From positions 5,147 through 69,146 of the forward strand of contig JALXCB010000046.1 in assembly GCA_026991225.1 (NCBI GenBank): a stretch of DNA of 64,000 bases, in the 5' to 3' direction. Positions 13,366 through 62,104 of this stretch are shown here, one piece after another; position 1 is the stretch's first letter; every line of letters starts with the position of its first letter. Under the pieces are notes generated by a model, which did not search any database, was not told where the DNA came from, and saw nothing but the letters and a program-made list of their open reading frames with translations. The stretch comes from Anaerolineae bacterium (lineage in GTDB: Bacteria; Chloroflexota; Anaerolineae; J102). A program made the position numbers and the translations under genes.

Positions 13366-14750
13366 TTCACCGCCATCTCGCCCGAATGGATGCAGTCGGG
13401 GATGCCGATGCCGTGGTAGGCGTTGCCAGCCAGGGCCAGGCCCGGCCAGCGCTCCAACCCGGCCAGGATGCGTCCCACCCGAGCGGGATGGCCCACGTTG
13501 TATTGGGGCATGGCCCGCGGCCAGATAAAGACGCGGTGAAGAAAGGGCTCAGCGGTGACGCCCAGGGTCAGGCGCAGCTCCTCCCGGGCGATGGCCAACA
13601 GCCCTTCTTCCGTCCAATCGATGGCGTCTTCCTGGCCCGCGCGGCCCACGAACACCCGCAGCAAGGCCATGCCTTCGGGCGCGCGGTGGGGAAATTTGGT
13701 AGAGGTCCAGGTGCAGGCCAGGGCTTTGCGCCCCTCCCGGCGGGGGATCACGTAGCCGTAGCCGTCCAGCGGGCGGGGGACGTCGGCCAGGCGGTAGGCC
13801 AGGGAGATGGTGGCCGTGGACGCGTAGGGGATGGCGTCCAGCAGGGAAGCGAGTTCAGGGTCGTGCGGGCGCAGCAGGCGGGCAGAGACGAACGCGGGCG
13901 CAGCCAGGATGAGTCGGTCAGCCTTCAACACTGCATACTGATTACTGAATACTGAATATTGGTGACTATCCTTTTTCAACTCCCTCACCTCCACACCCAA
14001 CCTCAACTCCGCCCCCAATTTACGCAACCTCACCACCAACGCCTCCACCAGCTCGGCCAGGCCCGTTTGCGGGGTGACGAACATGCTGCGGGAGCCGGGC
14101 GCGGCCCCGTTGCGCTTCATCCGCTCCCGTTTGGCGGCCAGCGCGCCCCGCACCAATCCCCCATGCTTCACCTCCAGGTCTCGCAGATAGGGGAAGGTGG
14201 CTTGCAGGCTGAGCTGGTCGCCATCGCCCGCGTAGATGCCGCTCATCAACGGCTCGATGAGCGCCTCATAAGCCTCCCGCCCCAGGCGACGGCCCACAAA
14301 CCGGCCCAGGCTCTCCTCCCCGGGCGACTTCGCGGGCGGCAGCAGGAAGTCGAGGCCCATGCGCAGCTTGCCAGGCCAGGAGATGAGCCCGGTGCGCAGC
14401 ATCCCCCCGAAATCAGTGGGGATCATCATGGTCAGACCGCCGGGCAGGGGATGCAGGCGGCCTTTGTGCAGGATGTAGGTGGCTTTCTGCTTGGGGTTGC
14501 TGCCATGCAGACGGTCGGCGACGCCCAGCTCTCGGGCCAGGGCCATGCCCCACGGCTTTATGGCGATGAAGGTGTCGGGCCCGCCTTCGATGACGAAGCC
14601 ATCCACCCGCTCGGTCGCGATCTTCCCGCCCCAGCGGTGGGCTTTTTCCAGCACGATGACCTCATCGGGCGGGTTTTGGGGCCGGGTGAGGGCGAAGTAG
14701 GCGGCGGAGAGGCCGGCGATGCCACCGCCGATGATGATGAGTCGAGTCAT
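13308..14750 (-). CDS. hemY: Protoporphyrinogen/coproporphyrinogen III oxidase (HemY/CgoX, FAD-dependent)
   Basis: 480 aa. N-terminal MTRLIIIGGGIAGLSAAY dinucleotide-binding motif. Amine-oxidase fold. It carries an in-frame E-family repeat copy (about 13929-13970). Its last ~15 codons plus the stop lie in a D-family repeat. Confidence 0.85.
   Translation of the reverse strand: MTRLIIIGGGIAGLSAAYFALTRPQNPPDEVIVLEKAHRWGGKIATERVDGFVIEGGPDTFIAIKPWGMALARELGVADRLHGSNPKQKATYILHKGRLHPLPGGLTMMIPTDFGGMLRTGLISWPGKLRMGLDFLLPPAKSPGEESLGRFVGRRLGREAYEALIEPLMSGIYAGDGDQLSLQATFPYLRDLEVKHGGLVRGALAAKRERMKRNGAAPGSRSMFVTPQTGLAELVEALVVRLRKLGAELRLGVEVRELKKDSHQYSVFSNQYAVLKADRLILAAPAFVSARLLRPHDPELASLLDAIPYASTATISLAYRLADVPRPLDGYGYVIPRREGRKALACTWTSTKFPHRAPEGMALLRVFVGRAGQEDAIDWTEEGLLAIAREELRLTLGVTAEPFLHRVFIWPRAMPQYNVGHPARVGRILAGLERWPGLALAGNAYHGIGIPDCIHSGEMAVKSLFRSQDERTQVNADASR
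13929..13970. repeat. Family E copy E2, in frame inside hemY
   Basis: ACTGCATACTGATTACTGAATACTGAATATTGGTGAC, translated on the minus strand as ...HQYSVFSNQYAV... Confidence 0.55.
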
Positions 14751-14764
14751 AGAGTGATCTTACG

Positions 14765-14840
14765 TTGAGTAATCAGTTATCAGTAAACAGTAATCAGTGG
14801 GGGCGCGGATGGATACTGATTACTGATCACTGTTTACTGA
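14765..14840. repeat. Family E copy E3 (palindrome between hemY start and hemE stop)
   Basis: GAGTAATCAGTTATCAGTAAACAGTAATCAGTG...CACTGATTACTGATCACTGTTTACTGATTAC. Confidence 0.7.
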
Positions 14841-15908
14841 TTACTTCCGGTTAAATTCATGGACCATTGCGACGACGGCCCGCACGTTCTCCACGGGCGT
14901 GTGCTGCAAGATGCCGTGGCCCAGGTTGAAGATGTGGCCCGGTCGACCCGCCGCGCGGGTCAACACGTCCCGCACCTGGTTTTCCAGCTCGGGCAGGGGG
15001 GCGAAGAGTGCGGTGGGATCGAGATTGCCCTGCACGGCCACGTCGTCGCCCAACAGCGCCCATCCTTCATCCAGAGGGATGCGCCAATCCAGGCCGATGA
15101 CATGCCCGCCCGCGGCCTTCATCTCCCCTAGCAGCGTGGTTGCGCCCACGCCGAAGTGGATGACGGGGACGTCGGCCCGGGCCATGAGGGTTTGTAGAAT
15201 CTGGCGGGAATAGGGCTGGACGAAACGGCGGTAATCCTGAGGATTCAGTGCGCCCACCCAGGAATCGAAGAGCTGCAAGGCCTGTGCGCCCGCGTCGGCT
15301 TGCGCCAGCAGATAATCGATGAGCACGGGCGTGAGTTTTTGCATGAGGGCGCGCCAGGCGGCGGGCTGCCCGTACATGAGCTTCTTGGTTTCGACGAAGT
15401 TGCGGGACGGCCCGCCCTCGATAATGTAGGCGGCCAGGGTGAAGGGCGCTCCTGCGAAACCGATGAGGGGAACGTCCCGACCATCCAACTCCGTCCGCAC
15501 CAGGCGGATGGCCTCGTACACATGCCCCAGGTCGGCCCGCACGTCCACTGGCCGGAGCGCGGCCACGTCGTCGGGCGAGCGCACGGGGTTGTGGATGACG
15601 GGCCCGCGGCCGGGGACGAATTCCAGCTTCAGGCCCATGGGCGGCAGGGGCAGGAGGATGTCGGCGAAGAGGATGGCCGCGTCCACGCCCAGGGTGTCCA
15701 CGGGCTGGAGGGTGATCTCGGCCGCGACCTCGGGCCGGGCGATCATCTCCAGGATGCTCTTGTGCTGGCGGCGGATGGCCTGGTATTCGGGCATGTAGCG
15801 CCCGGCCTGGCGCATGAACCAGACGGGCGTCGTGTCAGTAATCAGTCTTCGAGTGGCTCTCAGAAATCTCGATGTTGGCTCGTTAGTCATCATTGTCAGG
15901 GTTCTCAT
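14841..15908 (-). CDS. hemE: Uroporphyrinogen decarboxylase
   Basis: ...TPVWFMRQAGRYMPEY... is the canonical HemE N-terminal motif. Start may be Met6/Met7 of the listed ORF. Confidence 0.9.
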   Translation of the reverse strand: MRTLTMMTNEPTSRFLRATRRLITDTTPVWFMRQAGRYMPEYQAIRRQHKSILEMIARPEVAAEITLQPVDTLGVDAAILFADILLPLPPMGLKLEFVPGRGPVIHNPVRSPDDVAALRPVDVRADLGHVYEAIRLVRTELDGRDVPLIGFAGAPFTLAAYIIEGGPSRNFVETKKLMYGQPAAWRALMQKLTPVLIDYLLAQADAGAQALQLFDSWVGALNPQDYRRFVQPYSRQILQTLMARADVPVIHFGVGATTLLGEMKAAGGHVIGLDWRIPLDEGWALLGDDVAVQGNLDPTALFAPLPELENQVRDVLTRAAGRPGHIFNLGHGILQHTPVENVRAVVAMVHEFNRK

Positions 15909-15919
15909 TGGAAAAGTAA

Positions 15920-15974
15920 TCAGTCATCAGTCCAACGGTTTGTTCCTCACTGATTACTGCTTACTGATAACTGA
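15920..15974. repeat. Family E copy E4 (between hemE start and the rSAM stop)
   Basis: GAAAAGTAATCAGTCATCAGTCC...CACTGATTACTGCTTACTGATAACTGATTAC. Confidence 0.65.
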
Positions 15975-17129
15975 TTACTTCGCCTCGCGAAAGGCTTCAG
16001 GAACGTACACACACGCCGGGTCAGTTTCCAGATAATCGCCGGTGACGCCATAGGCCCGGCCGCGCTGGCCGCCGCACACGTCGCGGAATTCGCAGACGCC
16101 GCAGCGGCCCTTCAGTTTGTCGGGGTCCCGCAGGTCTTTGAATAAAGGATGGTTGCGATAGACCTCGACCACGTCATCTTTGCGGACGTTTCCGGCCACG
16201 ATGGGCAGGAAGCCGGAGGGTTCGATATTGCCGATGTGGGAGATGAAGAGGAAGCCATTGCCGTCGTTGACGCCTTTGGTGGGGCGGTTGAGGCCGTCCG
16301 CGTACTGGAAGCCCGCGCCCTGGAAGGCGATGGGCGCATCTTCGCCCAGTTCCTGGCGCTTGCGCTGGATGGCCACGCGGCGATACATGGGCGCGGCCGT
16401 GGCTTTGACGTCGAAAGGCGCTTCTTGGGCCAGGTCATACAGCCAATTGAAAATGCGCTCGTGCTCCTCGGGGGAGATCATCCAGTCGATCTGGCCCCGG
16501 CCCGTGGGCACCAGGAAGAAGACGGACCACTGCACCGCGCCCACCTCTTCGATGAAAGGCACCATCTCGGGCAGGATGTGGGCGTTGTGTTTGGCGACGG
16601 TGGTGTTCACCTGCACGCTCAGGCCCACGTCATGCGCCCGATGCAGGATGTCCATGGTGCGCTGCCAGGAGCCCGCCACCTTGCGGAAGTCGTCGTGGAT
16701 GGCGGGGCGGGGCGCATCCAGGCTAAGGGCGATGCGGCGGATGCCCGCGTCCCGGGCCTTTTGCAGCCGCTCTTTGGTGGGCAGAGCCGTGGCCGTGGGC
16801 GTCAGGGAGCAGCGCAGGCCCTTTTCAGTGGCGTAGGCGATGAGATCGAACAGGTCGCGGCGCATCATGGGGTCGCCGCCGGTGAAGATGAGGATGGGAT
16901 GGTTGCCGAACGCGGCCAGCCGATCGATGAGCTGAAAGCCTTCCTCGGTGGTGAGTTCCAGGGGATGGCGTTGGGGTTGGGCGTCGGCCCGGCAGTGGAC
17001 GCAGGCGTAGGCGCAGGCCCGGGTCACTTCCCAGGCGATGGTGAAGGGCGCTTTGTCGAAGTCCGCGTGCACCATGCGCCGGTCGTGGTAGGTGCGTTCG
17101 GCTGTGGCGGAGGGGGTGAGGTTGGACAT
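15975..17129 (-). CDS. Radical SAM/SPASM-domain protein, AhbD/NirJ-like, embedded in the heme operon
   Basis: 384 aa. CAYACVHC (CxxxCxxC). C-terminal Cys cluster ...KGRCGVCEFRDVCGG...DPACVY (SPASM-type auxiliary cluster motifs). Sits between hemB and hemE on the same strand. Confidence 0.7.
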   Translation of the reverse strand: MSNLTPSATAERTYHDRRMVHADFDKAPFTIAWEVTRACAYACVHCRADAQPQRHPLELTTEEGFQLIDRLAAFGNHPILIFTGGDPMMRRDLFDLIAYATEKGLRCSLTPTATALPTKERLQKARDAGIRRIALSLDAPRPAIHDDFRKVAGSWQRTMDILHRAHDVGLSVQVNTTVAKHNAHILPEMVPFIEEVGAVQWSVFFLVPTGRGQIDWMISPEEHERIFNWLYDLAQEAPFDVKATAAPMYRRVAIQRKRQELGEDAPIAFQGAGFQYADGLNRPTKGVNDGNGFLFISHIGNIEPSGFLPIVAGNVRKDDVVEVYRNHPLFKDLRDPDKLKGRCGVCEFRDVCGGQRGRAYGVTGDYLETDPACVYVPEAFREAK

Positions 17130-20790: not shown

Positions 20791-20831
20791 GAGAGTGGAG
20801 ATTGGGATCAGGATAGGATGAGGGAACGTAG

Positions 20832-20972
20832 CCAGGTTGGCGCGGGAAGCCACTCCCGTAATGCGTGATGCGTAAGGAGCTCACGGATTACGCATTACGC
20901 ATCACGTCGGTTGCAGACTCGCCCACCGTGGGCTTCGAGTCATTTTTGCAAACCAACGCTATTTTCGGAGCA
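20832..20972 (-). repeat. Family A copy A2 (inverted orientation)
   Basis: Same modules in reverse complement. Its terminal CCGAAAATAGCGTTGG module supplies the hemA stop codon. Confidence 0.8.
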
Positions 20973-23349: not shown

Positions 23350-23547
23350 GGTTCCATGCGACGCAAGGGGTGGGATATGAGAAAAGGTGCGACTTGACCG
23401 AAATGAGCTGGCATTCCGATAGGTCGCACCTGTTTTGTATACGAACAATCGAAGCCAATTGTTCCTCAACGTTCTTTTCAGGCGACACGGGCAGCAACCC
23501 GCCGTTACGGATGAAAACGCCCCGCGGCCGGGGCCGTGCAGGAAGCC

Positions 23548-23650
23548 AAGCACGTAATGCGTGATGCGTAACGATCTCACGTTTCACGTTTTCACGCATC
23601 ACGCCCGTTGCAGACTCGCCCAACCTTGGCTTTGCGAACCTTCAGCAACC
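23548..23650 (-). repeat. Family A copy A3 (inverted)
   Basis: GTAATGCGTGATGCGTAACGATCTCACG...CGCATCACGCCCGTTGCAGACTCGCCCAACCTTGG. Confidence 0.7.
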
Positions 23651-23666
23651 AGCGATCATTCGATTT

Positions 23667-24854
23667 TCATAGCAGCTCGATGGCCATAGCCACGGCCTCG
23701 CCGCCGCCCAGACAGAGCGCGGCCACGCCCCGCCGCCCGCCCGTCTGGCGCAGGGCGTAGATCAGGGTGGTGAGGACGCGGGCGCCGCTGGCTCCCAAAG
23801 GATGCCCCAGGGCGATGGCCCCGCCGTGGATATTGACCTTCTCCGGGTCTAGCCCCAGTTCGATGATGTTTTGCAGGGATTGGGCGGCGAAGGCTTCGTT
23901 CAGCTCGAACAGATCGACGTCGGCCAGGCTCCAGCCGATGCGGTCCATGAGGCGGCGGATGGCGTGGGGGGGCGCGGTGAAGACTTTGAGGGGCTCGACC
24001 GCGGCGTGGGTGTAGCCGATGATGCGGGCCAGGGGCGTCAGGCCATGGGCTTGAGCGTACTCGGGATGGGCGATAACCGTGGCGGCTGCGCCGTCGCTGA
24101 TAGGCGGCGCATTGCCCGCGGTGACCGTGCCCCCTTCCTCGAACGCGGGCCGCAGTCGAGCCAGGGCCTCCAGGCTCGTGTCCGGGCGGATGGGCTCATC
24201 CCGATCCACGACCACCTCCTTGCGCTTCTGTTTCACCGTGATGGGAACCATCTCATCTTTGAACAGCCCCTCCTCGGTGGCCCGAACCGCGCGCATGTGG
24301 CTCTGATAGGCGAACTGGTCCTGCATCTCGCGAGTGATGTTGAAAGTGCGGGCGATCCATTCCGCCTCGTTGCCCATGTGCAAGCCGTTGAAAGGATCGA
24401 TGAGGCCGTCATGCACGGTAGCGTCCAGCACCTCGCCATTGCCCAGGCGGTAGCCGAAGCGGGCTTTGGGCAGCATGTAGGGCCCCATGCTCATGGCCTC
24501 CATTCCCCCTGCCACATAGAGCCGACCATCGCCGGCGCGGATGGCGCTGGCCGCGAACATGACCGCGCGCAGGCCCGAACCGCACACCTTGTTCAGGGTG
24601 ACCGCGCCCACGCTCTCGGGCAGGCCGCCGAAGACGGCCGCCTGGCGGGCCGGGGCCTGGCCCGTGCCCGCGGGGATGACCTGCCCCATGAACACTTCCT
24701 CGACCTCGGCGGGATCAATGCCCGACCGTTCCACCACCGCCCGGATGACGTGCGCGCCCAGTTTGGGCGCAGGGATGTTGCTGAGCGCACCGCCCAACCG
24801 GCCGCCGGGCGTGCGGGCTGCGGCAAGGATGACAGGATAAATCGGTTGGTTCAT
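23667..24854 (-). CDS. Acetyl-CoA C-acetyltransferase (thiolase II)
   Basis: Start at [18 protein letters not shown]... Thiolase active-site regions (...NKVCGSGL..., ...[12 protein letters not shown]..., C-terminal ...[13 protein letters not shown]). Confidence 0.85.
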
Positions 24855-24867
24855 GACAAGGCTCCTG

Positions 24868-25065
24868 TTCCGAAAATAGCGTTGCATTGGTTTACAAAAA
24901 TAACTCGAAGCCCCCGTTGGGCGGGTCTGCTACAGACGTGATGCGTAATCCGTAATCCGTGAGGTCATTACGCATCACCCATTACGCATTACGTAGCTGG
25001 CTTCCCGCGCCGCCCTGGCCGCGGGGCGTTTTCATCGGTATCGGCAAACGTCGCTCGCGGCGCAT
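24868..25065 (+). repeat. Family A copy A4 (fills the whole thiolase-to-pdp spacer)
   Basis: All three modules present. Confidence 0.8.
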
Positions 25066-26574: not shown

Positions 26575-26740
26575 TTTGGCAGACCGGGAAACCGGTAGAC
26601 CGGTAGACCAGTAAACCGGGTGGGGGAGCGAATCGGCCCGGTTTCCCTGGTTTCCTGGTTTACCGGGTTACGGGACTACGGGGCTACGCACCCCGCCATT
26701 TTCGTCCGTGTCGGCGAGCTTGCGCTTGGGCCGCCTGCGT
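26575..26740. repeat. Family B copy B2
   Basis: GACCGGGAAACCGGTAGACCGGTAGACCAGTAAACCGGG...CCCGGTTTCCCTGGTTTCCTGGTTTACCGGG + ACGCACCCCGCCATTTTCGTCC tail. Confidence 0.8.
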
Positions 26741-26900
26741 TGAAAATAACGTTGCGTTGGTTTGCAAAAAAGACTTGAAGCCCACGTTGGGCGAGCCTGC
26801 CACGGGCGTGATTCGTGAAGACGTGAAACGTGAGGGCTTTACGCATCACGCATCACGGTTCACGAATTCGGCTCCCCGCGCCAACGTGGCCGTTAACGTT
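26741..26900 (+). repeat. Family A copy A5
   Basis: GTTGAAAATAACGTTGCGTTGG...CCCACGTTGGGCGAGCCTGCCACGGGCGTGATTCGTGAAGACGTGAAACGTGAGG... Confidence 0.75.
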
Positions 26901-27027
26901 TTATTGCGTATTTGTCGCTCAAGTATACTGCAACCCGAGAGAAATCATAAAAACCGCGCCGCGCTTCAAGCGCAGACTTCGATTTGTAGATTCCCTCACA
27001 TTTGCATACAATAGGCGTCAATTCTCG

Positions 27028-31184: not shown

Positions 31185-31329
31185 GATCTCACGCCAAGTC
31201 GCCAAGGCGCTAAGGCAGGTTTGCAAATATGCAGGTTTGTTTGCAGGTGGCAGGTCATACCGGGCGCACCTGCTACTTGCCACCTGCCACCTGATTTCCT
31301 TTGCGGCTCTTGCGTCTTTGCGTGAGATA
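31185..31329. repeat. Family G copy G2
   Basis: ATCTCACGCCAAGTCGCC...TTTGCAGGTGGCAGGTC...CACCTGCTACTTGCCACCTGCCACCTG...TTGCGTCTTTGCGTGAGAT. Confidence 0.75.
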
Positions 31330-31368
31330 TTCCGCCGTATCGGCGAGCCATCGCTCGCGCCGCCTGAA

Positions 31369-32916
31369 TCACCGATTGCGGCCGTAGCGCTCGTGGCTGG
31401 AGACCCAGTCGGTGGTGGAGATGGCCGCGGCCAGGGAGATCTCGCCCGCCAGCACGGTGGCGGCCACGATCTCGGCGAATTTCTTCACCTTGCCCTTGCC
31501 ATAGCATCCCAAAATCTCCAGGCATTCCCGCTGGGTGGGCAGGCCCGTGCCCCCGCCATAGGTGGCGACGATGAGGGAGGGGATGGTGATGGAGATGTAG
31601 AGGTCCTTTTCGGGCGTGAGTTCGGCGTAGAGGATGCCCGCGGAGCTCTCCGACACATTGGCCACGTCCTGGCCCGTGGCGATGAAGATGGCCGTGATGC
31701 CATTGGCCGAGTGCAGGCCGTTGTTGTTGGCCCCGGAGAGGATGGCGCCCACATTGGCCACGCCGTAGTGATAGGCCAGGCTTTCCGGCTCCACCCGCAT
31801 GTTCTGGATGAGCACGTCGCGGGGGATGGTGGCTTCGGCGATGACGCGCTTGCCGCGGGTGCGCATCACATTCACCTGCGAGGCCTTCTTGTCGGTGGCC
31901 AGATTCGATTCCAGATAGAAGCGGATGATATTGCCGGGATAATTGTCGATGATCCAGCTCGAAGCGGCGAAGGTGGCCCGCCCCACCATGTTCTGGCCGG
32001 CGGCGTCGCCCGTGGTGAAGTTGAAACGCAGATAGGCGAATTTGTTGGAGAGGTAGTAGTCGATGTAGATGAGTTTGGCCACGCTGGAGGTGGCCTCCGC
32101 TTCTTCTTTGACCTGATCAAAGTGCTCCTCCACCCACTTCACGAAGTCCCGGGCCTCGCGGGCGTTCTCGAAGACGAAGACAGGCGCGCGCTGCATGGCG
32201 TCGCCCACCACGGTGACCGTGGCCCCGCCTGACAGGTTCAGCACCTTCATGCCCCGATTGTAGGAGGCGACCAACGTGCCCTCGGTGGTGGCCAGAGGCA
32301 CATAAAACTCGCCTTGCGCGTATTCGCCATTCACCTGAATGGGCCCGGCAAACCCGATAGGCACCTGGGCCACGCCCGTGAAGTTCTCGATATTCCCCTG
32401 GGTGACGTGGGGATCGAAGGAATAGTGGATGATGTGCTTCAGCTTGACGCCCGACTTCTGCTCGATGAACTTCTGCCGGGCCTTGATGATCTCATCCGAA
32501 TAGTTGTCGATGGGATCGCGGGGGATGCGCTCGATCCTGGCGTCCTCCTCGCTGATGGCGTCTTCCACCTTGACCTTGAGCCGACCATATTTCTCCGCCT
32601 CGAATTCGAGCTCGATCTTGTGCTTGCCGGGGTCCAGGGGCGGGATATCCATGACGACTTCGATGACCTGACGCAGGGGGAAGAAAAGTGGGCGGGCCAT
32701 GAGTTCGGCCGGGGTGAGCACCGTGCCCTGTTCGTCCTCCACCTCCAGGACGATTTTATCCAGAGGCACGGGCTTGCCGTCGATTTTGATGCCGTGCAGA
32801 GCAAGCAGGGTGACGTCGGTGAGGCGGTTTTTGACTTTGAAGGCCACGCCTTCGCCCGAATTGCGCAGGCTGCCGAAAGTGTAGAGCTGTTTGAGTACGA
32901 GACTGGGAATACGCAT
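31369..32916 (-). CDS. Hydroxymethylglutaryl-CoA reductase (class I-like) with an extra N-terminal domain of about 125 aa
   Basis: Start at MRIPSLVLKQ... (ATG 32914-32916). ...VPLATTEGTLVASYNRG..., ...DAAGQNMV..., ...GTVGG... catalytic motifs. The N-terminal 125 aa are unrelated to HMGR. Confidence 0.8.
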   Translation of the reverse strand: MRIPSLVLKQLYTFGSLRNSGEGVAFKVKNRLTDVTLLALHGIKIDGKPVPLDKIVLEVEDEQGTVLTPAELMARPLFFPLRQVIEVVMDIPPLDPGKHKIELEFEAEKYGRLKVKVEDAISEEDARIERIPRDPIDNYSDEIIKARQKFIEQKSGVKLKHIIHYSFDPHVTQGNIENFTGVAQVPIGFAGPIQVNGEYAQGEFYVPLATTEGTLVASYNRGMKVLNLSGGATVTVVGDAMQRAPVFVFENAREARDFVKWVEEHFDQVKEEAEATSSVAKLIYIDYYLSNKFAYLRFNFTTGDAAGQNMVGRATFAASSWIIDNYPGNIIRFYLESNLATDKKASQVNVMRTRGKRVIAEATIPRDVLIQNMRVEPESLAYHYGVANVGAILSGANNNGLHSANGITAIFIATGQDVANVSESSAGILYAELTPEKDLYISITIPSLIVATYGGGTGLPTQRECLEILGCYGKGKVKKFAEIVAATVLAGEISLAAAISTTDWVSSHERYGRNR

Positions 32917-35088: not shown

Positions 35089-36438
35089 ATGACTGATGAC
35101 TTGACTTCTCACCTGGAACGCCTTCATCGTCCCATGACCGACGCCATCAAGGAGATGGTGCGCATCCCCAGCTACCTGGTCGAAGGCGGGGATGGCTATC
35201 CCTTTGGCCGTGCGGTGCACGAGGCCCTGCAAAAGGCTGTGGATATCGCCGCGGGCCTGGGCTTCCGCGCGTGGTACGACGGCGCGGGCTATTACGCTTG
35301 GGCCGAGATCGGCGAGGGGGATGCGCTGATCGGCGTGGTGGGGCATGTGGACGTGGTGCCGCCCGGCAATCCCGAATCCTGGATCACGCCTCCCTTCCAG
35401 CCCGATGAGCGGGATGGCAGGCTGTATGGGCGAGGAACGCAGGATGACAAAGGCCCGATGATGGCGGCGCTGTTCGCGGTGAAGGCGCTGATGGATGCGG
35501 GCGTGACCTTCCCCAAGCGAGTGCGCTTCATCTTTGGCGGGGATGAGGAGAACCACTGGCGGGGCATCGACCGCTATCTGGCGCGGGAGGAAGTTCCGAG
35601 CATGGGCTTCACGCCCGACGCGGAATTCCCCCTCATCTTCGCGGAAAAGCACATCCTGCAAGTGGAGCTGATGGGTCCAAATGAGGCTGCCGCGCCCGAG
35701 ATGGACCTGGGCACGGCTTTCAATGCGGTGCCGGGCGAGGCCCTTTACACCGGCCCGCATCAGGACGCGCTGGCCGCGAAGCTGGACGAACTGGGCTTCG
35801 AATATGAGCGGGTGGACGCGGGCATCCGCGTGTTGGGCCAGGCCGCCCACGCCTCCCTGCCCGAAAAGGGCGTCAACGCCATCGCCCGCCTGGCCATCGC
35901 CCTGGACGCCATCGGCTGCCAGGCCAGGACCATCCGCTTTCTGGCCCAGACCGCGGGCATGGATTACCACGCGAAGGCCATCTTCGGGCGGGTGGAGGAC
36001 GAGGTCTCGGGCAAACTCACCTTCAACGTGGGCAAACTTATCATCACGCCCGAAGAGGAGCGCCTGGGTATCGACATGCGCATCCCCGTCACCGCGGACG
36101 TGGCTCAGGTAACAGCGAAGCTGCAGGAGGCAGCGAGCAAGTTCGGGCTGAGCTACCATGAGCGGGCCTCCATGCCCGCGCTTTACGTGCCCCTGGACCA
36201 TCCCTTGGTGAACACGCTGCTGGCGGTGTACCGCGAGGTGACGGGCGATGAGGACGCGCAGCCCATCGCTATCGGCGGGGGCACCTACGCCCGGGCCATG
36301 CCCAACTGCGTGGCCTACGGTCCCAACTTCCCCGGCCGCCCCGAGACCGCACATCAGGCGAACGAGTATGTCATCCTGGAAGACCTGTATCGGGCGATGG
36401 CGGTGTACGCGGAGGCGATTTATCGGTTGACGCGGTAA
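35089..36438 (+). CDS. M20-family dipeptidase (Sapep/PepV-like)
   Basis: GGAGG 8 nt before ATG (MTDDLTSH...). ...GVVGHVDVVPPG... and ...GTQDDKGPMMAAL... M20 metal-binding motifs. Alternative start at 35074. Confidence 0.7.
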   Translation: MTDDLTSHLERLHRPMTDAIKEMVRIPSYLVEGGDGYPFGRAVHEALQKAVDIAAGLGFRAWYDGAGYYAWAEIGEGDALIGVVGHVDVVPPGNPESWITPPFQPDERDGRLYGRGTQDDKGPMMAALFAVKALMDAGVTFPKRVRFIFGGDEENHWRGIDRYLAREEVPSMGFTPDAEFPLIFAEKHILQVELMGPNEAAAPEMDLGTAFNAVPGEALYTGPHQDALAAKLDELGFEYERVDAGIRVLGQAAHASLPEKGVNAIARLAIALDAIGCQARTIRFLAQTAGMDYHAKAIFGRVEDEVSGKLTFNVGKLIITPEEERLGIDMRIPVTADVAQVTAKLQEAASKFGLSYHERASMPALYVPLDHPLVNTLLAVYREVTGDEDAQPIAIGGGTYARAMPNCVAYGPNFPGRPETAHQANEYVILEDLYRAMAVYAEAIYRLTR

Positions 36439-39400
36439 ACCACCACCTCCCCCGCCACATCCAGAAAACACACCACCGCCCGCGGGGTCACATCCAACAA
36501 TGCGCGCACCGCCTCGGCATAGCGCCGCACCTGTTCGTCGTAGCCCTTCTCGGCGATAATCGCCTCCATCTCCGCCCGGTCCCGCGCCCGATCCGTCTTG
36601 AAATCCACCAGGGTCCAGTCCTCGCCCGTGCGGTAGAGCAGGTCGATGGTCCCGCGGGCGGGGACGCCGTCGGGATCGAGATAGGCGTAAGGGACTTCGT
36701 GCAGGCGCTGGTCCGCGGCCTGAATCTCGGCCCACAGGGCGCTCGCAGCCAGGTTGCGCAGCAGACGCCGGGTCCGCCACAGCGCGTTGCGGATCATGCC
36801 GGGGTCGCTGAGGCCCAACCCCCGGGCGCTGGCCTCCAGCCAGGCGTCGAAGTTGGGCGCGTCGGGCATACGCTCCAGCTCGATGGCCCGATGCGCGAGC
36901 TTGCCCACCATCCACGCCGGGGCCCAGGCCCGCGCGCCCTCGGGCGGGAAGATGCGCCACACCCGGCGCTCGGGCTCCTGCTCCCGCTGGCGCGCGTCCT
37001 CATCCAGCGCGTCCTCGACCGGCTCGAAAGGCGCCAGCAGCTTGGGTTGGAAGGGCGGGGGGGCGAGGGCGTCGGTCTCGGGCGTGTACGTTCGCCGGGG
37101 CGCGGCCGCGTCCTCCACCCGCACGCATCGCACCGGCGCGCCCGCCATCCCCAAACGACAAATCTGCTCCCCCGCACCCTCCGCCTGGACGAAGGCATCC
37201 AGCTCCGGCAAAGCCAGCTTCAGCCATCGATACCAGCCGCCTTTGTTCCATCGCCCCACCACGCCATTGAGGATCAGGTGATCTTCGGCCCGGGTGGCGG
37301 CCACATAGAACAGCCGCTTGTCCTCGGCCTCCTCCTTGCGGGCCTCCATCCGTTGCAGAAGCTGATAAAACGCGGGTTTGGCTTCGTTTTCCGAGGACGA
37401 AGGGACCTTCCAGGCCATCCAGCCATCCGCGATGACCACGCCGCGGCCTCTTCGCGGAGCATAAGTGATATCGCCCAGCACGACGATGGGGAACTCCAGG
37501 CCCTTGGCCCGATGCACGGTCATGATCTGCACCGCGCCCTCGGCCACCACGGGCGCTTCGCCCTCGCGCACGTCCGCATCCCGGGCCAGATCGATCCACT
37601 CCAGGAACGAGGCCATGTGCACCAGGCCCGCGGCCTGCACATCGGCCAGGAGCTTGTTCACGTTGCGCACGGCCCGGCTTTGCCCCGCCCCGGCCAGAAT
37701 GGCCAGATAATCGGTCTCGTCCACATAGCCCTTGAGCAGGTCGGCCACGGGCGCGCGGCCCGCCATGCCGTGCAGCCGGGTTAGGAGCTCGCGGGCGAAC
37801 GTCAGGCGGGGGAGTTCGTCCGGAGGAAAGTCGTGGGGTGGGGTTTGGACGGCTGTCCACAAATCGTGACGTTTGACGTTTGACGTTTGACGAAGCCGCT
37901 CCCGATGCCGGGCGAGATGATAGAGCGCGACGTCGCTCAGGCCCAGACCGGGCGACCGCAAGGCCCCGACCAGGGCGACGTCGTCGGTGGGGTCGGCCGC
38001 AGCCCGCATGACGTTGGTCAGATCGCGGATCTCCGGGCGCTGGAAGAAGCCCCGCCCGGCTAGAGTGAGAAAAGGCACGCCCGCCGCGTCCAGCGCGTCC
38101 TCATACGCGGCGAAGCTGGTCGCCGCCCGGCAGAGGATGGCCGCGTCGCCGGGGGCGTAGCCCTGGTCGAACAACGCAATCAGCCGGTTGACCGCGGCCC
38201 GGGCCGCAATGGGCATGGCCTCCCCCTTGTTCCCCGCGGCCAACTGCACCTCGATGAAGGCGTCGGAGGCGATGCGGGGCGCGCGGTCGCGGGCGGACGT
38301 CAGCGGGGCGAACGCGGCTTCCCAATCATAGCGGGCCCGCCCCAACACCGGCTCCAGCAGGTCGTTGAGGCCATCGACCAGACGGGCGTGGGCGCGGTAG
38401 GTGGCGTTCAACCGGGCCACGCGCTTGCCCGCGGCCTCGAAGTCCCCCTCGGTGCGGGTGAACACCGCCACCTCTGCGCCGCGAAAGCGGTAGATGGACT
38501 GCTTGGCGTCGCCCACGAGAAAACGCACGCCCCGCCCGCCGTCCAGCAGTTCCAGCAGCCGGGCCTGGCGGGCGTTGGTGTCCTGGAATTCATCCACCAG
38601 CAGGGCCTGCACCTCTTCCCGCCAGCGCCGCCGCACCGAGGGATGATCCTCCAGCAGGCTCACGGCGCGGGTTTCCAGATCGTCGAAATCCAGAGCGTGG
38701 GCCTCGCCCTTGCGGGCCTCGTAAATGGCGAAGGCTTGCAGGGCCACGGCCCGCAGCGCCGCCAGCGCCCGGGCCGAGCGCGCGTCCTCCTCGTTCAGCC
38801 CCATGCTCAACCATGCGTTCTCCTTGCCGAAGAAGGGTTCGCGCAACGTTTTGAGCGCTTGCTGGATGGCGGTTTTCCCCTCGGGCCAGGCCTTTGCCGT
38901 CCCCACTCTGCTGTAATTTTTGATGCCAGCCAACAGGGCTGCGGCCCGCCGAAGCGCGTCGGCGTCCTGTCGATCCGACAGCCATTGCAGAGCTTCCCGA
39001 GCCGTCTGCACCAACATGGACAACTTATCGGATGGAACTCGGATGCGGGCTTGTTCTATCGCCGCGCGGGCGGCCTGCCAGTCGGGATCCGCCACGATCT
39101 CCTCCAGCCGCGCCCGCTGCATCCGGGCCAATTCGGTCTCCCACGCGGCCAGCAGGGCATCCGGATGATGGGGCATGGACGCTAGCAGCGCCCGCGCATC
39201 CACCCCCTGCTGCAACAATGCCGACAAAGCCCCGCGCACCTCGCTTTCCCCCACCTGTGCGAACAATCCGGCCAGTTCCGCCTGATTCGCTGCCCAAAAC
39301 AGGGCGTCTTCCACCGCCTCACGCTTCAGCAGGGCCATGCGCCCCTCTTCGATGACCTGAAAATCGGGATCGACCCGGGCCTCGACAGGGTGGGCGCGCA

Positions 39401-39749
39401 GGATCTCCTGGCAGAGGCTGTGGATGGTGCTGATGCGGGCCGCGTCGAGCTGCGAGGCGATGGCGTGCCAGCGTTCCCGTTCCGCGGGCTCCAGATCGGG
39501 GCGGGCGAGATAGGCCCACACCTGCTCGCGGATGCGCTTGCGCATCTCGCGGGCGGCCTTGCGGGTGAAGGTGATGGCCACGATGCCCCGCAGGGGCAGC
39601 CCTGCGGCCAGCAGGGCCAGAAAACGGGCAGTAAGGGCCCAGGTCTTGCCCGCGCCCGCGCCTGCGGTCACCAGCACATCGGTGGGGCCGAACGCGGCCC
39701 GGGTCTGGGCCTCGCTCAGCGTCAGGGATTGGAGGATGGGATGATGCAT
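36420..39749 (-). CDS. UvrD/AddA-type superfamily-1 helicase fused to a C-terminal PD-(D/E)XK nuclease domain
   Basis: 1109 aa. Walker A TAGAGAGKT. UvrD motifs. C-terminal ...GTIDLLYRTGEDWTLVDFKTD... AddA/AddB-type nuclease motif. No partner subunit adjacent. Contains an in-frame A-family repeat fragment at about 37858-37895. Confidence 0.8.
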   Translation of the reverse strand: MHHPILQSLTLSEAQTRAAFGPTDVLVTAGAGAGKTWALTARFLALLAAGLPLRGIVAITFTRKAAREMRKRIREQVWAYLARPDLEPAERERWHAIASQLDAARISTIHSLCQEILRAHPVEARVDPDFQVIEEGRMALLKREAVEDALFWAANQAELAGLFAQVGESEVRGALSALLQQGVDARALLASMPHHPDALLAAWETELARMQRARLEEIVADPDWQAARAAIEQARIRVPSDKLSMLVQTAREALQWLSDRQDADALRRAAALLAGIKNYSRVGTAKAWPEGKTAIQQALKTLREPFFGKENAWLSMGLNEEDARSARALAALRAVALQAFAIYEARKGEAHALDFDDLETRAVSLLEDHPSVRRRWREEVQALLVDEFQDTNARQARLLELLDGGRGVRFLVGDAKQSIYRFRGAEVAVFTRTEGDFEAAGKRVARLNATYRAHARLVDGLNDLLEPVLGRARYDWEAAFAPLTSARDRAPRIASDAFIEVQLAAGNKGEAMPIAARAAVNRLIALFDQGYAPGDAAILCRAATSFAAYEDALDAAGVPFLTLAGRGFFQRPEIRDLTNVMRAAADPTDDVALVGALRSPGLGLSDVALYHLARHRERLRQTSNVKRHDLWTAVQTPPHDFPPDELPRLTFARELLTRLHGMAGRAPVADLLKGYVDETDYLAILAGAGQSRAVRNVNKLLADVQAAGLVHMASFLEWIDLARDADVREGEAPVVAEGAVQIMTVHRAKGLEFPIVVLGDITYAPRRGRGVVIADGWMAWKVPSSSENEAKPAFYQLLQRMEARKEEAEDKRLFYVAATRAEDHLILNGVVGRWNKGGWYRWLKLALPELDAFVQAEGAGEQICRLGMAGAPVRCVRVEDAAAPRRTYTPETDALAPPPFQPKLLAPFEPVEDALDEDARQREQEPERRVWRIFPPEGARAWAPAWMVGKLAHRAIELERMPDAPNFDAWLEASARGLGLSDPGMIRNALWRTRRLLRNLAASALWAEIQAADQRLHEVPYAYLDPDGVPARGTIDLLYRTGEDWTLVDFKTDRARDRAEMEAIIAEKGYDEQVRRYAEAVRALLDVTPRAVVCFLDVAGEVVVYRVNR

Positions 39750-43298: not shown

Positions 43299-44243
43299 TC
43301 ATTCCCGCCCAAACAGCCAATCCAGAAACGAGCGCTTCTTCCTCGGCTCGGGCGTTGTCGCCGTCTCAGAAGCGGGTGCGGGGGGCGTCGCCGAGTCGGA
43401 TGGGGAGGGTTCAGGCGCGGGCATGGGCGTTTGGGCGGCCGCGGGCGCAGGGGGTCGGGCCTGAGGCGCGGGCGGGGAAGGCGTTGGCGTTGGAGTGGAA
43501 GCAGGCGCAGGGGCGGGCGGATAAGGAGGCTGGTAAGGAATCGCTGCCGCAGGGAAAACAGGTTGGCGCTGACTGCGCACCAGATCATCCAGTTGGCGCT
43601 GCAATTGAAACATGTACGCCTCCATCTGCCGCATCCGCTCCCGCTCATCCTCCCGATAGCGCTCCATCTCCCGTTTCATCTCGAAAATGCGCCGCTCGGT
43701 CTCCACCATGCGCTCCCGCAGACGTTTGTTCTCTTCCTTGAGATTCATGTTGTCCTGAATCACAATGCTCAGCAATTCCCGCTCGGTCTGCTGTCCCGTG
43801 ATGATCATTTGCTGGCTGCCCGATAGCGTCGAGATCATCTGCGCCATCATCCTTCCCAGATCCGCGGCATCCTCCCCCAACACCATCTCGCCTGCTTCCT
43901 CGCCCCGGGCGGGCTCCTCCGCCCTGACCGACCCGCCTTCCTCCTCGACCTCGCCTTCCACGACGGTCACCTCGGGTTCGAAATTTATCTCCAGCATCGC
44001 CGCCACCTGGTCGAAGGTGAGGCCCTGGCTGAGAAGGGTTTTGCAGCGGGCGAGCACGGCCAGGTCCTCGGGCGTGTAGCGGCGATGCCCGCGCGTCCCA
44101 TCGGCCGGGCGCAAGCCATGGGCCTGGGGCGACAGAAACGCGGCAAAGCGCCGCGACCATCGTCGCAGGGTGGACGCGGGAATGCCGAGGCGCTGGGCGG
44201 CCTCGGCGGGTCGGATCAAGGCGTCGTCTTCAGAGGACATCAA
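43299..44243 (-). CDS. MerR-family transcriptional regulator with coiled-coil and Pro-rich C-terminal region
   Basis: N-terminal ...AAQRLGIPASTLRRWSRRF... HTH. Long charged coiled-coil. PAPAP-rich tail. Confidence 0.7.
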   Translation of the reverse strand: MMSSEDDALIRPAEAAQRLGIPASTLRRWSRRFAAFLSPQAHGLRPADGTRGHRRYTPEDLAVLARCKTLLSQGLTFDQVAAMLEINFEPEVTVVEGEVEEEGGSVRAEEPARGEEAGEMVLGEDAADLGRMMAQMISTLSGSQQMIITGQQTERELLSIVIQDNMNLKEENKRLRERMVETERRIFEMKREMERYREDERERMRQMEAYMFQLQRQLDDLVRSQRQPVFPAAAIPYQPPYPPAPAPASTPTPTPSPPAPQARPPAPAAAQTPMPAPEPSPSDSATPPAPASETATTPEPRKKRSFLDWLFGRE

Positions 44244-44249
44244 CGGCTT

Positions 44250-44440
44250 CGCGTTCGTCTACAAAAGCTACTCGAAACCCACATTGGGCGAGGCTGCAAT
44301 GGGCGTAAAACGTCAAACGTGAAACGTCATGTCCTCACGCATCACGTTTCACTTGTCACGTCATCGGCTTCCCGAGCCGCTCTGGCCACAAGGCTTTTTT
44401 ATTCGTATCGGTGATCTCTCGCTCGCGTAGCCCGGTTTCG
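44250..44440 (+). repeat. Family A copy A6
   Basis: ...CCCACATTGGGCGAGGCTGCAATGGGCGTAAAACGTCAAACGTGAAACGTCATG...GGCTTCCCGAGCCGCTCTGGCCACA...TTATTCGTATCGGTG. Confidence 0.75.
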
Positions 44441-46662: not shown

Positions 46663-46692
46663 TACAGTGTTCAGTGTTTAGTGTTCAGCTAT
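46663..46692. repeat. Family E-related fragment E6 (CAGTGTTCAGTG variant)
   Basis: ACAGTGTTCAGTGTTTAGTGTTCAGC. Related to the reverse complement of E1. Confidence 0.4.
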
Positions 46693-52927: not shown

Positions 52928-52986
52928 GACGATGGACGATGGCGCTAAGCCTTATCGTCCACCGTCCATCGTCTATCGTCTGTTTT
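52928..52986 (-). terminator. Hairpin terminator immediately downstream of the P-type ATPase gene
   Basis: GACGATGGACGATGG...CCACCGTCCATCGTC inverted repeat followed by a U-rich tract on the minus strand. Confidence 0.45.
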
Positions 52987-58842: not shown

Positions 58843-60033
58843 TCAGGTCTGGCAAAACGCGGACAACCATGCTTCCAGGCCCGCGGCCCGACACTCCCAA
58901 CTGAGGCGGGGCGCTGCAGCGAAAACCGCCCGGCTGAGGCGGCCGCGAGCCGATGCGTCCGTCAGCAGAAGCTGGAGCCGGGCGATCAACGTGTCCTCGT
59001 TCGGGGCGGGCTCCCCGCCCGCCTCGCGCACCAGCGCGCCATACTCCCCCACATCCAACGTCAGCGAGGGGACGCCCTGCGCCAGACAGTCGAGCGCCCT
59101 GGCCGGGCTTTTGGCCTGGACCAGGGGCTTTTTGTTGGGCAGGAAGAGGCAGACCGCAGCTGAGCGGATGGTCTGGACATAGCGGTCGGGGGGGAGCCAG
59201 CCCAAGATGCGGGCGTTGGGCACGGGGAAGGGGGGACGCCAGCCGCCCGCGATGAGCAATTCGGCCTGGGGGACGCGGGCGCTCACCTGTGCCCAGACGC
59301 GGGTCAGCATCCCCGCATCCGCATCATGCCCGCGCGTAAGCAGGAGCGCGTGCGGGAGGTTGGCTTCCACCGGGGCGCGGGTCGCCGCGGGTGTGAGACC
59401 GTTGGGAAGATAGTAAGGCATGGGAGAAGGAAAGCGCTTCAGCGCGTCCGCACGGCCCAAGACCTCGGAGGTCCGCTGAGACCTCCGAGGTCTCCATGGC
59501 GACCAATGGGCCTGCAGAAAGCGGGAGGCGACGGTAACGCCCATGGCGTCGCGGATGAGCTCGCGCTCCTGGCGGGTCAGCAGTCGGGCGAGAAGCCGAT
59601 TCCGCCCCGTTTCCTCCATCCAGGCCACTTCCAGATCATCCACATCCACCACCACCCGCCTGTCCCGCCGCATCCACCAGCGCCCGACCCAGCCCGCATA
59701 GCCCAACCCCTTGCTCACGATCAACGCGTCCGGCCCAAACGCCTCCACCTCCCGCCGCAGTCGTCCCAAAAGCGCCGGATACGCTCCCCGCCACCCCACT
59801 CCCAGCTCCGGCGTCATCACCTTCACCGCCTCCGCTCCCCACGGTCCGCCCTCCGACTTCTGACCTCTGACCCCTGCCCCCTGACCTCTGACTTCCTCGG
59901 GGCAATCCCACGCCGGGATGAGCAGCGCGGTCCCATGCCCGCGGGCGGCCAGGGCTCGGGCCAGCGGCAGCAGCCGACTACCCACGGTCCCCCGTCGGCA
60001 GCGTCCGAATGGAGCAAGAATGAGGAAACGCAT
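58843..60033 (-). CDS. Glycosyltransferase (GT-B fold, GT1/GT4-like)
   Basis: 396 aa. Carries two in-frame palindromic/direct-repeat DNA segments at about 59455-59500 and about 59850-59905. Confidence 0.6.
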   Translation of the reverse strand: MRFLILAPFGRCRRGTVGSRLLPLARALAARGHGTALLIPAWDCPEEVRGQGAGVRGQKSEGGPWGAEAVKVMTPELGVGWRGAYPALLGRLRREVEAFGPDALIVSKGLGYAGWVGRWWMRRDRRVVVDVDDLEVAWMEETGRNRLLARLLTRQERELIRDAMGVTVASRFLQAHWSPWRPRRSQRTSEVLGRADALKRFPSPMPYYLPNGLTPAATRAPVEANLPHALLLTRGHDADAGMLTRVWAQVSARVPQAELLIAGGWRPPFPVPNARILGWLPPDRYVQTIRSAAVCLFLPNKKPLVQAKSPARALDCLAQGVPSLTLDVGEYGALVREAGGEPAPNEDTLIARLQLLLTDASARGRLSRAVFAAAPRLSWECRAAGLEAWLSAFCQT

Positions 60034-61944: not shown

Positions 61945-62075
61945 TCGGAAAACAGTGTGATTTGCAAACGCTCGCCAGCCCAACGTTGGGCGAGGCGACA
62001 ACGGGCGTCAAACATCAAACATCATGCGTCATGTCCTGACGTTTGACGAAGTCGGTTTGCCGCGCGAACGCGGGG
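61945..62075 (+). repeat. Family A copy A7 (inside the glmS leader, between ribozyme and start codon)
   Basis: GCTCGCCAGCCCAACGTTGGGCGAGGCGACAACGGGCGTCAAACATCAAACATCATGCGTCATGTCCTGACGTTTGACGAAGTCGG. Confidence 0.75.
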
Positions 62076-62104
62076 AAACGCCCGTGCAGGCGCGACCGGG
62101 GTCC

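Follow-up and report, generated by a model that had tools for sequence, protein, structure and literature searches.

A perfect heptanucleotide array in a variable loop of an AddA/UvrD-type helicase-nuclease from an uncultured Anaerolineae bacterium, and its probable origin

Heptanucleotide repeats in bacteria and the present tract

Cyanobacteria reportedly carry STRR heptamer repeats, an observation that goes back to Mazel et al. in 1990. Heptanucleotide repeats in general are the commonest long SSR class according to Mrazek (2007) as summarised in PMC4679880, and polymerase slippage has been proposed as their cause (PMC4679880). A well described case is the TAACTGA repeat of marine Beggiatoaceae, Cyanobacteria and Bacteroidetes, where the strand with stops in all three frames occurs only between genes or at gene ends, while 'reverse', stop-free repeats are found inside ORFs (MacGregor 2015, PMC4679880) and encode there the 7-residue periodic peptide LSVISYQ. 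In-ORF TAACTGA repeats of BOGUAY lie mostly in hypothetical proteins or at protein termini (PMC4679880). For start-adjacent heptamer repeats, binding of a post-transcriptional regulator was proposed (MacGregor 2015, PMC4679880), and in host-adapted bacteria tandem non-triplet repeats in ORFs are known as phase-variation switches (PMC4679880).

Limited literature searches found no paper on heptamer arrays in Chloroflexota. The DNA analysed here, a 64-kb stretch referred to as the window, belongs to this phylum and has such an array within a helicase-nuclease gene:

37867-37892, read on the - strand: perfect heptanucleotide tandem array, (TGACGTT)x3.7 on the + strand
36420-39749, - strand: host gene of 1109 aa, AddA/AdnB/UvrD-like helicase with C-terminal PD-(D/E)XK nuclease (Pfam, PDB sequence matches)
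37842-37934, - strand: length-variable loop region holding the array, residues ~606-635 (homologue alignment, AF2 secondary structure)

The arrays of the window share with the LSSR (Mrazek, Guo and Shah 2007, as summarised in PMC4679880) and the STRR the head-to-tail 7-nt units in 2-6 copies per array, the great abundance in certain lineages, the largely intergenic location and the build as mosaics of one- or two-base variants. They differ from these in that the host is an uncultured member of the Anaerolineae (Chloroflexota), that many of them form inverted hairpin arms, and that the genic tract is inside an essential-type repair gene, where it has replaced sequence instead of adding it. The orientation rule is the same as for TAACTGA; however, the unit here is AAACGTC, the periodic peptide is KRQTSNV, and the arrays in the window and in metagenomes occupy loops and interdomain linkers inside well-defined enzymes.

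The array, its host protein and strain comparison

TRF describes the tract by period 7, 3.7 copies, 100% matches and a score of 52, and no other long period-7 array of the window is perfect. In the direction of the gene it reads CGT CAA ACG TCA AAC GTC AAA CGT CAC, that is RQTSNVKRH at codons 620-628, with a GC3 of 0.44 compared to 0.84 for the whole gene. A preliminary description of this DNA had quoted the 47-nt string CGTGACGTTTGACGTTTGACGTTTGACGAAGCCGCTCCCGATGCCGG at 37855-37900; the string is present, but about 10 nt further on, at 37865-37911, while its placement in frame within the 1109-aa ORF and the quoted peptide ...RLRQTSNVKRHDLW... were both correct.

Perfect arrays this long are expected by chance only ~1e-7 times in 64 kb (calculated here as 64000 x 4^-19), and shuffled sequence yields ~0.05 arrays even at a threshold far lower than that of the genic tract. 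Allowing at most one mismatch, GACGTTTGACG has 10 sites in place of the 0.97 expected, a number reached in 0 of 100 shuffles. The head-to-tail 7-nt copies beyond chance place the genic tract among LSSR/STRR-like arrays. Chance similarity or a sequencing or assembly artefact, for which the short length of 26 nt might speak, has a negligible probability in view of these figures and of five independent assemblies that agree on the tract; an assembly artefact was discarded on the latter ground.

Pfam domains of the host protein are UvrD-helicase PF00580 (7.8e-59), UvrD_C PF13361 and PDDEXK_1 PF12705, and its PDB sequence matches are UvrD, Rep, PcrA, AddA and AdnB. The combination of SF1 UvrD helicase domains with a C-terminal PD-(D/E)XK nuclease is that of AddA/UvrD-type enzymes, and among 5828 homologues Anaerolineae/Chloroflexi predominate. 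The AF2 model has a mean pLDDT of 84, which dips to 80 at the array loop, and predicts a helix at 606-622, coil at 623-629 and a helix at 630-635. The array region aligns with residues ~355-451 of D. radiodurans UvrD, and we assign the loop to helicase subdomain 2B. Residues 620-628 precede both the helicase C-terminal motifs (714-827) and the nuclease (941-1087), which places the array inside the helicase and not between helicase and nuclease blocks as had been suggested.

An identical tract is found in the five independent strain-level assemblies (L001, L152, L153, L154 and P0241/P0242), and likewise in P0243 and P0244. The full-length products of the strain variants are all 1109 aa with 0-13 aa differences, all of these outside the tract, and the nucleotide differences are mostly in synonymous codons (26/39 in L152), from which the host gene appears to be under purifying selection. 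No length variants were seen in the 90% cluster of the protein. A strain comparison over 14.5 kb at 99.3% identity gave no indel in heptamer arrays; indels were confined to a GC-rich repeat near 43.4 kb and to two 1-nt changes that compensate each other. A metagenome scan for other unit numbers, with AAATCGTGACG N{0,30} TTTGACGAAGCCGC as pattern, returned zero matches of any kind and is hence uninformative. Since the five assemblies have identical tracts, there is no sign of phase variation, and ongoing slippage finds no support in the five strains or the 14.5 kb, where copy number does not change.

These data bear directly on the idea of a contingency locus, in which a single heptamer gained or lost would shift the frame and so switch the helicase-nuclease on or off, while three-unit changes would vary the loop. 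Like the contingency loci of host-adapted bacteria, where in-ORF non-triplet repeats work in this way (PMC4679880), the tract is a non-triplet tandem repeat in an ORF in which a one-unit change shifts the frame, and after a 7-nt change the protein would end short of helicase motifs V/VI and the nuclease. The tract is nevertheless short, with only 3.7 units, it lacks length polymorphism in the five strains, and the gene is without surface or antigenic link and under apparent purifying selection. A contingency locus is therefore extremely unlikely.

Slightly less improbable, and still very unlikely, is a functional cis-element, either an array bound by a protein that recognises the heptamer or a signal in the mRNA. 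Some intergenic arrays of the window do adjoin start codons, for example the one at 46665-46688, 3 nt upstream of a start, and regulator binding has been proposed for such repeats (MacGregor 2015, PMC4679880). The genic tract, however, is 1.9 kb away from the gene start, a scan around it gave no promoter- or terminator-like site, and folding of either strand gave no structure above shuffles (z = -0.5 and -1.2). An inverted AAACGTC partner is absent near the tract, and Rfam at gathering thresholds finds only a glmS ribozyme in the whole window, with nothing at the tract or the A elements described below. All orthologues are without the tract, and its position in a variable loop, together with the same array in linkers of unrelated genes, fits tolerance rather than function.

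Comparison with orthologues and with the A family

The tract is not conserved in orthologues lacking the repeats, and on this point the preliminary description stands. Orthologues at 68-77% protein identity, on contigs without period-7 arrays, do not have it, and the tract is therefore lineage-specific. Relative to the nearest orthologues the array loop lacks 4 residues (12 nt), and their codons at this place are GC-rich and unrelated to the array. The orthologue codons at the site are CGT CAG GCC CGC GCG GCG AAC GCA ACT CGC CAT ATT CCC CTC TGG, and those of the window CGT CAA ACG TCA AAC GTC AAA CGT CAC GAT TTG TGG. Both retain the residues R, Q, N, R, H, L and W in this order, and for the R, Q, N, R and H encoded by the array the alignment shows identical residues in the orthologue P0002. 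The bases AAGCCGCTCCCG after the array are ancestral coding sequence for R-E-R-L (cf. CGC GAG CGG ATG in L004). At the level of the orthologue alignment, this establishes a replacement with 12 nt net loss and not the insertion previously proposed. Insertion of a transposable element or MITE was likewise rejected, the loop being 12 nt shorter than in orthologues and no duplicated flank (target-site duplication) being visible in the sequence around the tract. Intermediate alleles were not found; the closest orthologue is only 75% identical.

The tract had also been described as a fragment of the A family of the window, a dispersed element of ~190 bp that has both conserved flanks and a hairpin whose arms are built from heptamers. 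Two arms of this family are relevant:

62037-62054, + strand: A7 right arm/flank junction, TGACGTTTGACGAAGTCG, with a 17/18 match to the genic tract
44304-44329, + strand: A6 left arm, CGTAAAA CGTCAAA CGTGAAA CGTCA, with the unit CGTCAAA common to the genic tract

The matches to both arms indeed exist (A7 62035-62064, A6 44308-44329), and the unit CGTCAAA/TGACGTT of the tract is present in A6 and A7. In the window TGACGTTTGACGAAGNCG is found at 37881-37898 and 62037-62054 only, with 0 expected. Beyond the array three bases agree with the A7 junction, followed by one mismatch and two more agreements, so that the 17/18 match somewhat exceeds what the common unit explains.

Such similarity would result if the tract were a copied piece of the A family (right arm plus start of the right flank). 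The route would be ectopic short-patch gene conversion or microhomology-mediated template switching, bounded by the microhomologies CGTCA and GAAGNCG. The junction TTTGACGAAGTCGGCTTCC is also present in A-family copies of the related MAGs L028 and L020, conversion would produce a replacement such as the one seen, and the array codons differ in composition from the rest of the gene, as in the GC3 values given above. The family HMM (nhmmer) further aligns 37863-37911 with the same arm-unit number, at 10.5 bits and E = 0.009, although the alignment covers model positions 98-147 only. As a control, unrelated (GACGTTT)3 arrays with their native flanks were scored, and 20/81 of them reach >=10.5 bits, while array-only matches have 9-10 bits. 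The similarity to the right flank (GGCTTCCCGCGCC...GTTTTCATCGGTATCGG) at the gene is 11/15 and adds ~0-1 bit. Since unrelated arrays reach the same score and the array alone nearly does so, the right flank contributes essentially nothing, and an A-family origin based on the nhmmer match was dropped after this control.

Other observations point in the same direction. The supposed flank AAGCCGCTCCCG consists of the ancestral R-E-R-L codons, and the conserved left flank TTGGGCGAGNCTGCNAYGGRCGT, searched with up to 3 mismatches, was found in intergenic copies only and not at the genic tract. True A copies have long hairpins, whereas two inverted heptamer arms or a long hairpin are absent at the genic tract, and the A-family arms are mosaics while the genic tract is perfect. 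No donor arm turned up in 323 kb from the clade, where no other site has even two perfect units plus GACG. Of the A-family assignment there remains the heptamer unit of the A6/A7 arms, without flanks, inverted arm or hairpin and with an HMM score no better than that of unrelated arrays. Copying from the A family is accordingly unlikely in our judgement, albeit the strongest competitor.

Heptamer arrays elsewhere and the origin of the tract

The window has 25 period-7 arrays among 69 non-overlapping tandem arrays, compared to 9-11 for each of the periods 6, 8 and 9. A period-7 excess is also seen in the loci of three related Anaerolineae MAG species and in none of the control loci. Coding sequence makes up 87% of the window, yet about 20 of these 25 arrays lie between genes; the remaining, genic ones are in frame within real genes. 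Many arrays in the window are paired as inverted hairpin arms. Two further in-frame arrays are:

13930-13958, - strand: array in a HemY-like protoporphyrinogen oxidase gene (13308-14750, - strand), YSVFSNQYAV, codons 265-274
59850-59892, - strand: CCTCTGA x6.1 in a GT4 glycosyltransferase ORF (58843-60033, - strand), VRGQGAGVRGQKSEG, codons 48-62

The unit number of the HemY array varies between species at 85-90% identity (3-4, 4 and 6 units), and this array, with the peptide YSVFSNQ, is a near relative of the TAACTGA unit.

Perfect (GACGTTT)3GACG is present in >120 metagenome contigs of 32-70% GC, and the heptamer unit is thus not specific to the A family. Of 136 metagenome arrays, 23 lie in long open frames in AAACGTC orientation. 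The Pfam-confirmed host genes are LigA (HhH/BRCT linker), CarA (interdomain), MnmA, SHMT-GcvT (linker), class II RNR and an S8 peptidase. Three or more units of GACGTTT bring a TGA into each of the frames, whereas AAACGTC is free of stops in all phases. The helicase-nuclease gene reads AAACGTC, the sole translatable orientation, just as the rule of MacGregor (2015) has it. Three units are 21 nt or 7 codons, so that the frame is preserved and KRQTSNV is encoded in cyclic permutation.

We consider it probable, with moderate confidence, that the tract is a lineage-specific heptanucleotide array of the LSSR class which replaced part of a tolerant, length-variable surface loop of an AddA/UvrD-type helicase-nuclease. 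Its precursor may have been a stretch of the gene that already had CGTCAR (R-Q) at its start and CGYCAY (R-H) at its end, and that slipped-strand mispairing or local homogenisation turned into the array on the spot. Slippage adds units and does not by itself account for the net shortening, which calls for several events or for a mechanism of replacement. The tract would persist because the loop tolerates it and would have no function of its own, being most likely a tolerated passenger. The A6 and A7 arms would then be other products of the same array-forming tendency and not the parent of the genic tract.

The consequence for the helicase-nuclease seems to be small, as nine residues of a variable surface loop are recoded with no sign of regulation or switching of the enzyme. 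The heptamer-repeat phenomenon of Cyanobacteria, Beggiatoaceae and others is now extended to the Anaerolineae, and the stop-free-strand orientation rule is seen at work inside well-annotated enzymes. AddA, HemY and GT4 in the window, together with LigA, CarA, MnmA, RNR, SHMT-GcvT and the S8 peptidase in metagenomes, are natural examples of a non-triplet repeat replacing a loop or linker. For annotation, low-complexity peptides like KRQTSNV are to be expected in such genomes and should not be taken for mobile-element insertions or frameshifts.

One may speculate, with considerable doubt and less readily than about copying from the A family, that these Anaerolineae and many other uncultured bacteria have a genome-wide process that writes tandem heptamers over existing DNA and so replaces it without inserting anything. 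Such a process would build hypervariable hairpin arms as in the A family between genes and time and again overwrite loops and interdomain linkers within genes with stereotyped 7-residue cassettes (KRQTSNV, YSVISNQ), the AddA tract being a recent and still perfect product. If this were true, heptamer overwriting would be a general cause of turnover in loops and linkers that has so far gone unrecognised.

The heptamer tract in the helicase-nuclease gene

Tandem Repeats Finder reports an array with period 7, 3.7 copies, 100% matches and unit TGACGTT at 37867-37892, and in our own period-7 scan of the 64-kb window this tract has the top score and is the sole perfect long array. It lies in the following gene:

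36420-39749, minus strand: host ORF of 1109 aa with UvrD-helicase, UvrD_C and PD-(D/E)XK domains

The string quoted in the preliminary description is present, at 37865-37911 instead of 37855-37900 (about 10 nt off), and the frame is preserved as it had claimed: the coding strand reads CGT CAA ACG TCA AAC GTC AAA CGT CAC, i.e. RQTSNVKRH at codons 620-628. The tract has a GC3 of 0.44 versus 0.84 for the host gene, and two of its codons, CGT and TCA, are rare. The tract codons are thus compositionally foreign to the host gene, which fits a mutational rather than a selected origin.

An assembly artefact is ruled out, since five independent assemblies of the same species have exactly this tract. 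The tract DNA is the same in L001, L152, L153 and L154, all from this species, while the gene has 13-39 differences, most of which fall in synonymous codons. Five proteins make up the 90% cluster of the AddA-like protein and depart from its representative by 0-13 residues; all full-length members are 1109 aa long and RQTSNVKRH is found in all. A strain comparison over 14.5 kb (99.3% identity) gave no indel in any heptamer array, and a metagenome scan for tract alleles with other unit numbers gave no match of any kind. Phase variation at the tract is unsupported, as both the tract and the 1109-aa length are constant in the strains compared. The only multi-base indels between the window and L152 (99.3% identity) are of 12, 9 and 3 nt, all multiples of three, at 43390-43480 in a GC-rich repetitive stretch inside a MerR-like ORF (43299-44243).

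By sequence matches, the best solved relatives of the host protein are UvrD, Rep, PcrA, AddA and AdnB. It had been asked whether the tract is an insertion between the helicase and nuclease blocks, and neither part of this reading holds: the site is inside the helicase, ahead of the Pfam matches to UvrD_C (714-827) and PDDEXK (941-1087), and the loop is 4 residues shorter, not longer, than in the closest orthologues. The AlphaFold2 model of the host protein has a mean pLDDT of 84 with a local dip to 80 at residues 620-628, which comprise the end of helix 606-622 and most of the coil 623-629 ahead of a short helix (630-635). Alignment to D. radiodurans UvrD puts the tract near chain residues 440-450, which we take to be in subdomain 2B by the established UvrD/Rep/PcrA domain boundaries.

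In an alignment of 32 homologues, all apparently Anaerolineae or Chloroflexi, the tract site is a length-variable stretch flanked by two invariant motifs, LSD..L and LW. The closest orthologues (68-77% protein identity) have RQARAAN-ATRHIPLW or similar where the window has RQ---TSN-VKRH-DLW. Lineage-specificity of the tract, implicit in the preliminary description, is borne out at the codon level: across the 30 kb of the four orthologue contigs (L002-L005) there is no period-7 array, and all four have GC-rich, non-repetitive DNA at the site, for instance CGT CAG GCC CGC GCG GCG AAC GCA ACT CGC CAT ATT CCC CTC TGG in L002. Of the residues that the array encodes, R, Q, N, R and H align with the same residues of the orthologue protein P0002, and CGTCAA in the first unit and CGTCAC in the last correspond to CGTCAG and CGCCAT of the orthologues.

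Relation to the A-family elements

Period-7 tandem arrays number 25 in the window, against 9-11 each for periods 6, 8 and 9. A simple gene call from codon usage assigns 87% of the window to coding sequence; the arrays, by contrast, are mainly intergenic (about 20 of 25), often occurring as inverted hairpin-forming pairs and often placed within a few bases of a start or stop codon. Seven form arms of the A-family element of about 190 bp, in which a conserved flank stands on each side of a long imperfect hairpin with arms built of variable heptamers (left flank ...TTGGTTTGCAAAAA..CCCACGTTGGGCGAGNCTGCAACGGGCG, right flank GGCTTCCCGCGCCGCCCTGGCCGCG..GTTTTCATCGGTATCGG). Seven full copies, or roughly one every 9 kb, are recovered by a profile built from the family, with E-values from 1e-22 to 1e-52:

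Copies of the A-family element recovered by the family profile
13090-13283, plus strand: A-family copy
20814-20969, minus strand: A-family copy
23483-23672, minus strand: A-family copy
24869-25062, plus strand: A-family copy
26740-26919, plus strand: A-family copy
44246-44430, plus strand: A-family copy
61949-62112, plus strand: A-family copy A7

Relative to the genes beside them the copies point either way, and many directly adjoin a start or stop codon. The element has no Rfam match. With one genome scanned per species, its left flank turned up in four Anaerolineae MAG species (JALWDV, JALWZT, JALXAF and WFTO). On one side of A7 is a glmS ribozyme (Rfam RF00234, 41.3 bits; 62165-62341, minus strand) and on the other the glmS start codon at 61928 (minus strand; product MCGIVGYIG...), which puts A7 in the 5' leader downstream of the ribozyme, where it might influence the fate of the cleaved mRNA.

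A heptamer hairpin of about 147 bp with AGGTGGC/CTGCCAC units lies between two genes at 31190-31330 and is absent from the syntenic site in L005 (12290-12310), where the flanking genes are 87-89% identical; this is a clean presence/absence comparison for the origin of such hairpins. The motif GTATCGGCG-N-TCGCTCGCG-CGCC is present repeatedly, both where A elements end on the right and at the 3' terminus of the gene at 31369; near 31340-31400 it is conserved in L005, and it may form a terminator-like module of its own. Arrays of ACTGATT, CAGTGTT and GACGATG type (46665-46688, 14768-14845, 927-954, 52928-52981 and 15949-15979) lie from a few to about 40 nt from start codons or in stop-to-start gaps of operons, some as inverted pairs.

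The tract had been described as a fragment of this family. The similarity to arms of A7 and of a further copy, A6, is real, but the left flank, an inverted partner and a stable fold are all absent at the tract site by pattern search and folding. Within the window TGACGTTTGACGAAGNCG has just two sites, 37881-37898 and 62037-62054, where none would be expected, and GACGTTTGACG with one mismatch allowed has 10 sites versus 0.97 expected. Against the family profile, 37863-37911 aligns with model positions 98-147 (right arm and start of the right flank) at 10.5 bits (E = 0.009). We rejected this match as support for an A-family origin, because among 81 unrelated metagenome arrays with the unit and length of the tract and their own flanks, 20 score at least 10.5 bits with the same profile; as array-only matches reach 9-10 bits, the flank of the tract adds nothing. 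The supposed flank bases AAGCCGCTCCCG read CGG GAG CGG CTT on the gene strand, where L004 has CGC GAG CGG ATG, and are ancestral R-E-R-L codons.

The junction with A7 is identical at 17 of 18 positions, a little beyond what the shared unit explains; by a rough post-hoc estimate, given that several arms were compared, such a match has a chance of about 1 in 100. It could reflect microhomology in a templated event, or chance. Copying from an A-type arm via CGYCA microhomologies is in our judgement unlikely. In 323 kb of clade sequence no other site has even two perfect units plus GACG. That R-Q...N...R-H are kept in register with the orthologues favours an origin in place, which would have started from a proto-repeat bounded by CGYCA motifs.

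Arrays in other genes and metagenomes

The sequence (GACGTTT)3GACG occurs in at least 120 metagenome contigs of 32-70% GC, usually within mosaics of other heptamers. GACGTTT has TGA in each unit, so that three units give a stop in every frame, while AAACGTC has no stop triplet in any phase. The 23 of 136 arrays that lie in long open frames are always in the AAACGTC orientation, which agrees with the expectation for a stop-free strand, and encode cyclic permutations of KRQTSNV. In-frame (AAACGTC)n arrays are found in contigs L045, L054, L056, L115, L126, L139 and L144, usually in interdomain linkers, and Pfam confirmed real enzymes in which linkers or loops hold the array:

Metagenome enzymes with the array, by Pfam
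LigA: between HhH and BRCT
CarA: between its two domains
MnmA: inside the HUP domain
SHMT-GcvT fusion: in the linker
Class II ribonucleotide reductase: between barrel and TSCPD
S8 peptidase: after the catalytic domain

In some of these ORFs another array, built of a different unit, lies close by (e.g. SNIQYPISNIQ, DVKRSTFDVG), and the L115 ORF, judged from its translation, has a nucleotide-binding motif, GGGPAG, together with another stretch encoded by an array, QTSNVKRETS. Two further genes in the window carry in-frame arrays:

13308-14750, array at 13930-13958, minus strand: HemY-like protoporphyrinogen oxidase, TATTCAG-type array in frame (YSVFSNQYAV)
58843-60033, array at 59850-59892, minus strand: GT4-like glycosyltransferase ORF with a weak coding score, six CCTCTGA copies in frame (VRGQGAGVRGQKSEG)

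The HemY-like array lies inside a single Pfam match (residues 11-461). It is shared by relatives at 85-91% identity, where unit numbers differ (3-4, 4 and 6), and in relatives with 63-67% identity an equally long but unrelated segment occupies the site; so here too, as in the helicase-nuclease gene, the array replaced sequence and did not lengthen the loop.

Origin of the tract and comparison with known repeats

The best-supported reading of the tract is a heptanucleotide simple-sequence array of a genome-wide class. It would have formed within the loop, in the lineage of this species, and would have been kept because the loop tolerates change, the orientation is stop-free and three units make seven codons. 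Polymerase slippage as the cause of period-7 arrays was proposed by Mrazek et al. (2007), as summarised in PMC4679880, and it would be a candidate cause of the tract also.

The TAACTGA heptamer repeats are mostly intergenic, adjoining start codons, and have stops in all frames of the forward strand; 'reverse' copies lie inside 11 ORFs, and repeat-encoded LSVISYQ peptides are found in database proteins (MacGregor 2015, PMC4679880). The tract follows the same rules but differs in unit, phylum and its setting in a well-defined enzyme, and the placement at start codons is resembled by window arrays such as 46665-46688. The tract is a new case of a known kind of repeat. The broader pattern, heptamer cassettes that replace loops and linkers across many lineages, may merit separate study, as may the A-family elements, whose heptamer arms are hypervariable and of which one copy lies in the glmS leader.
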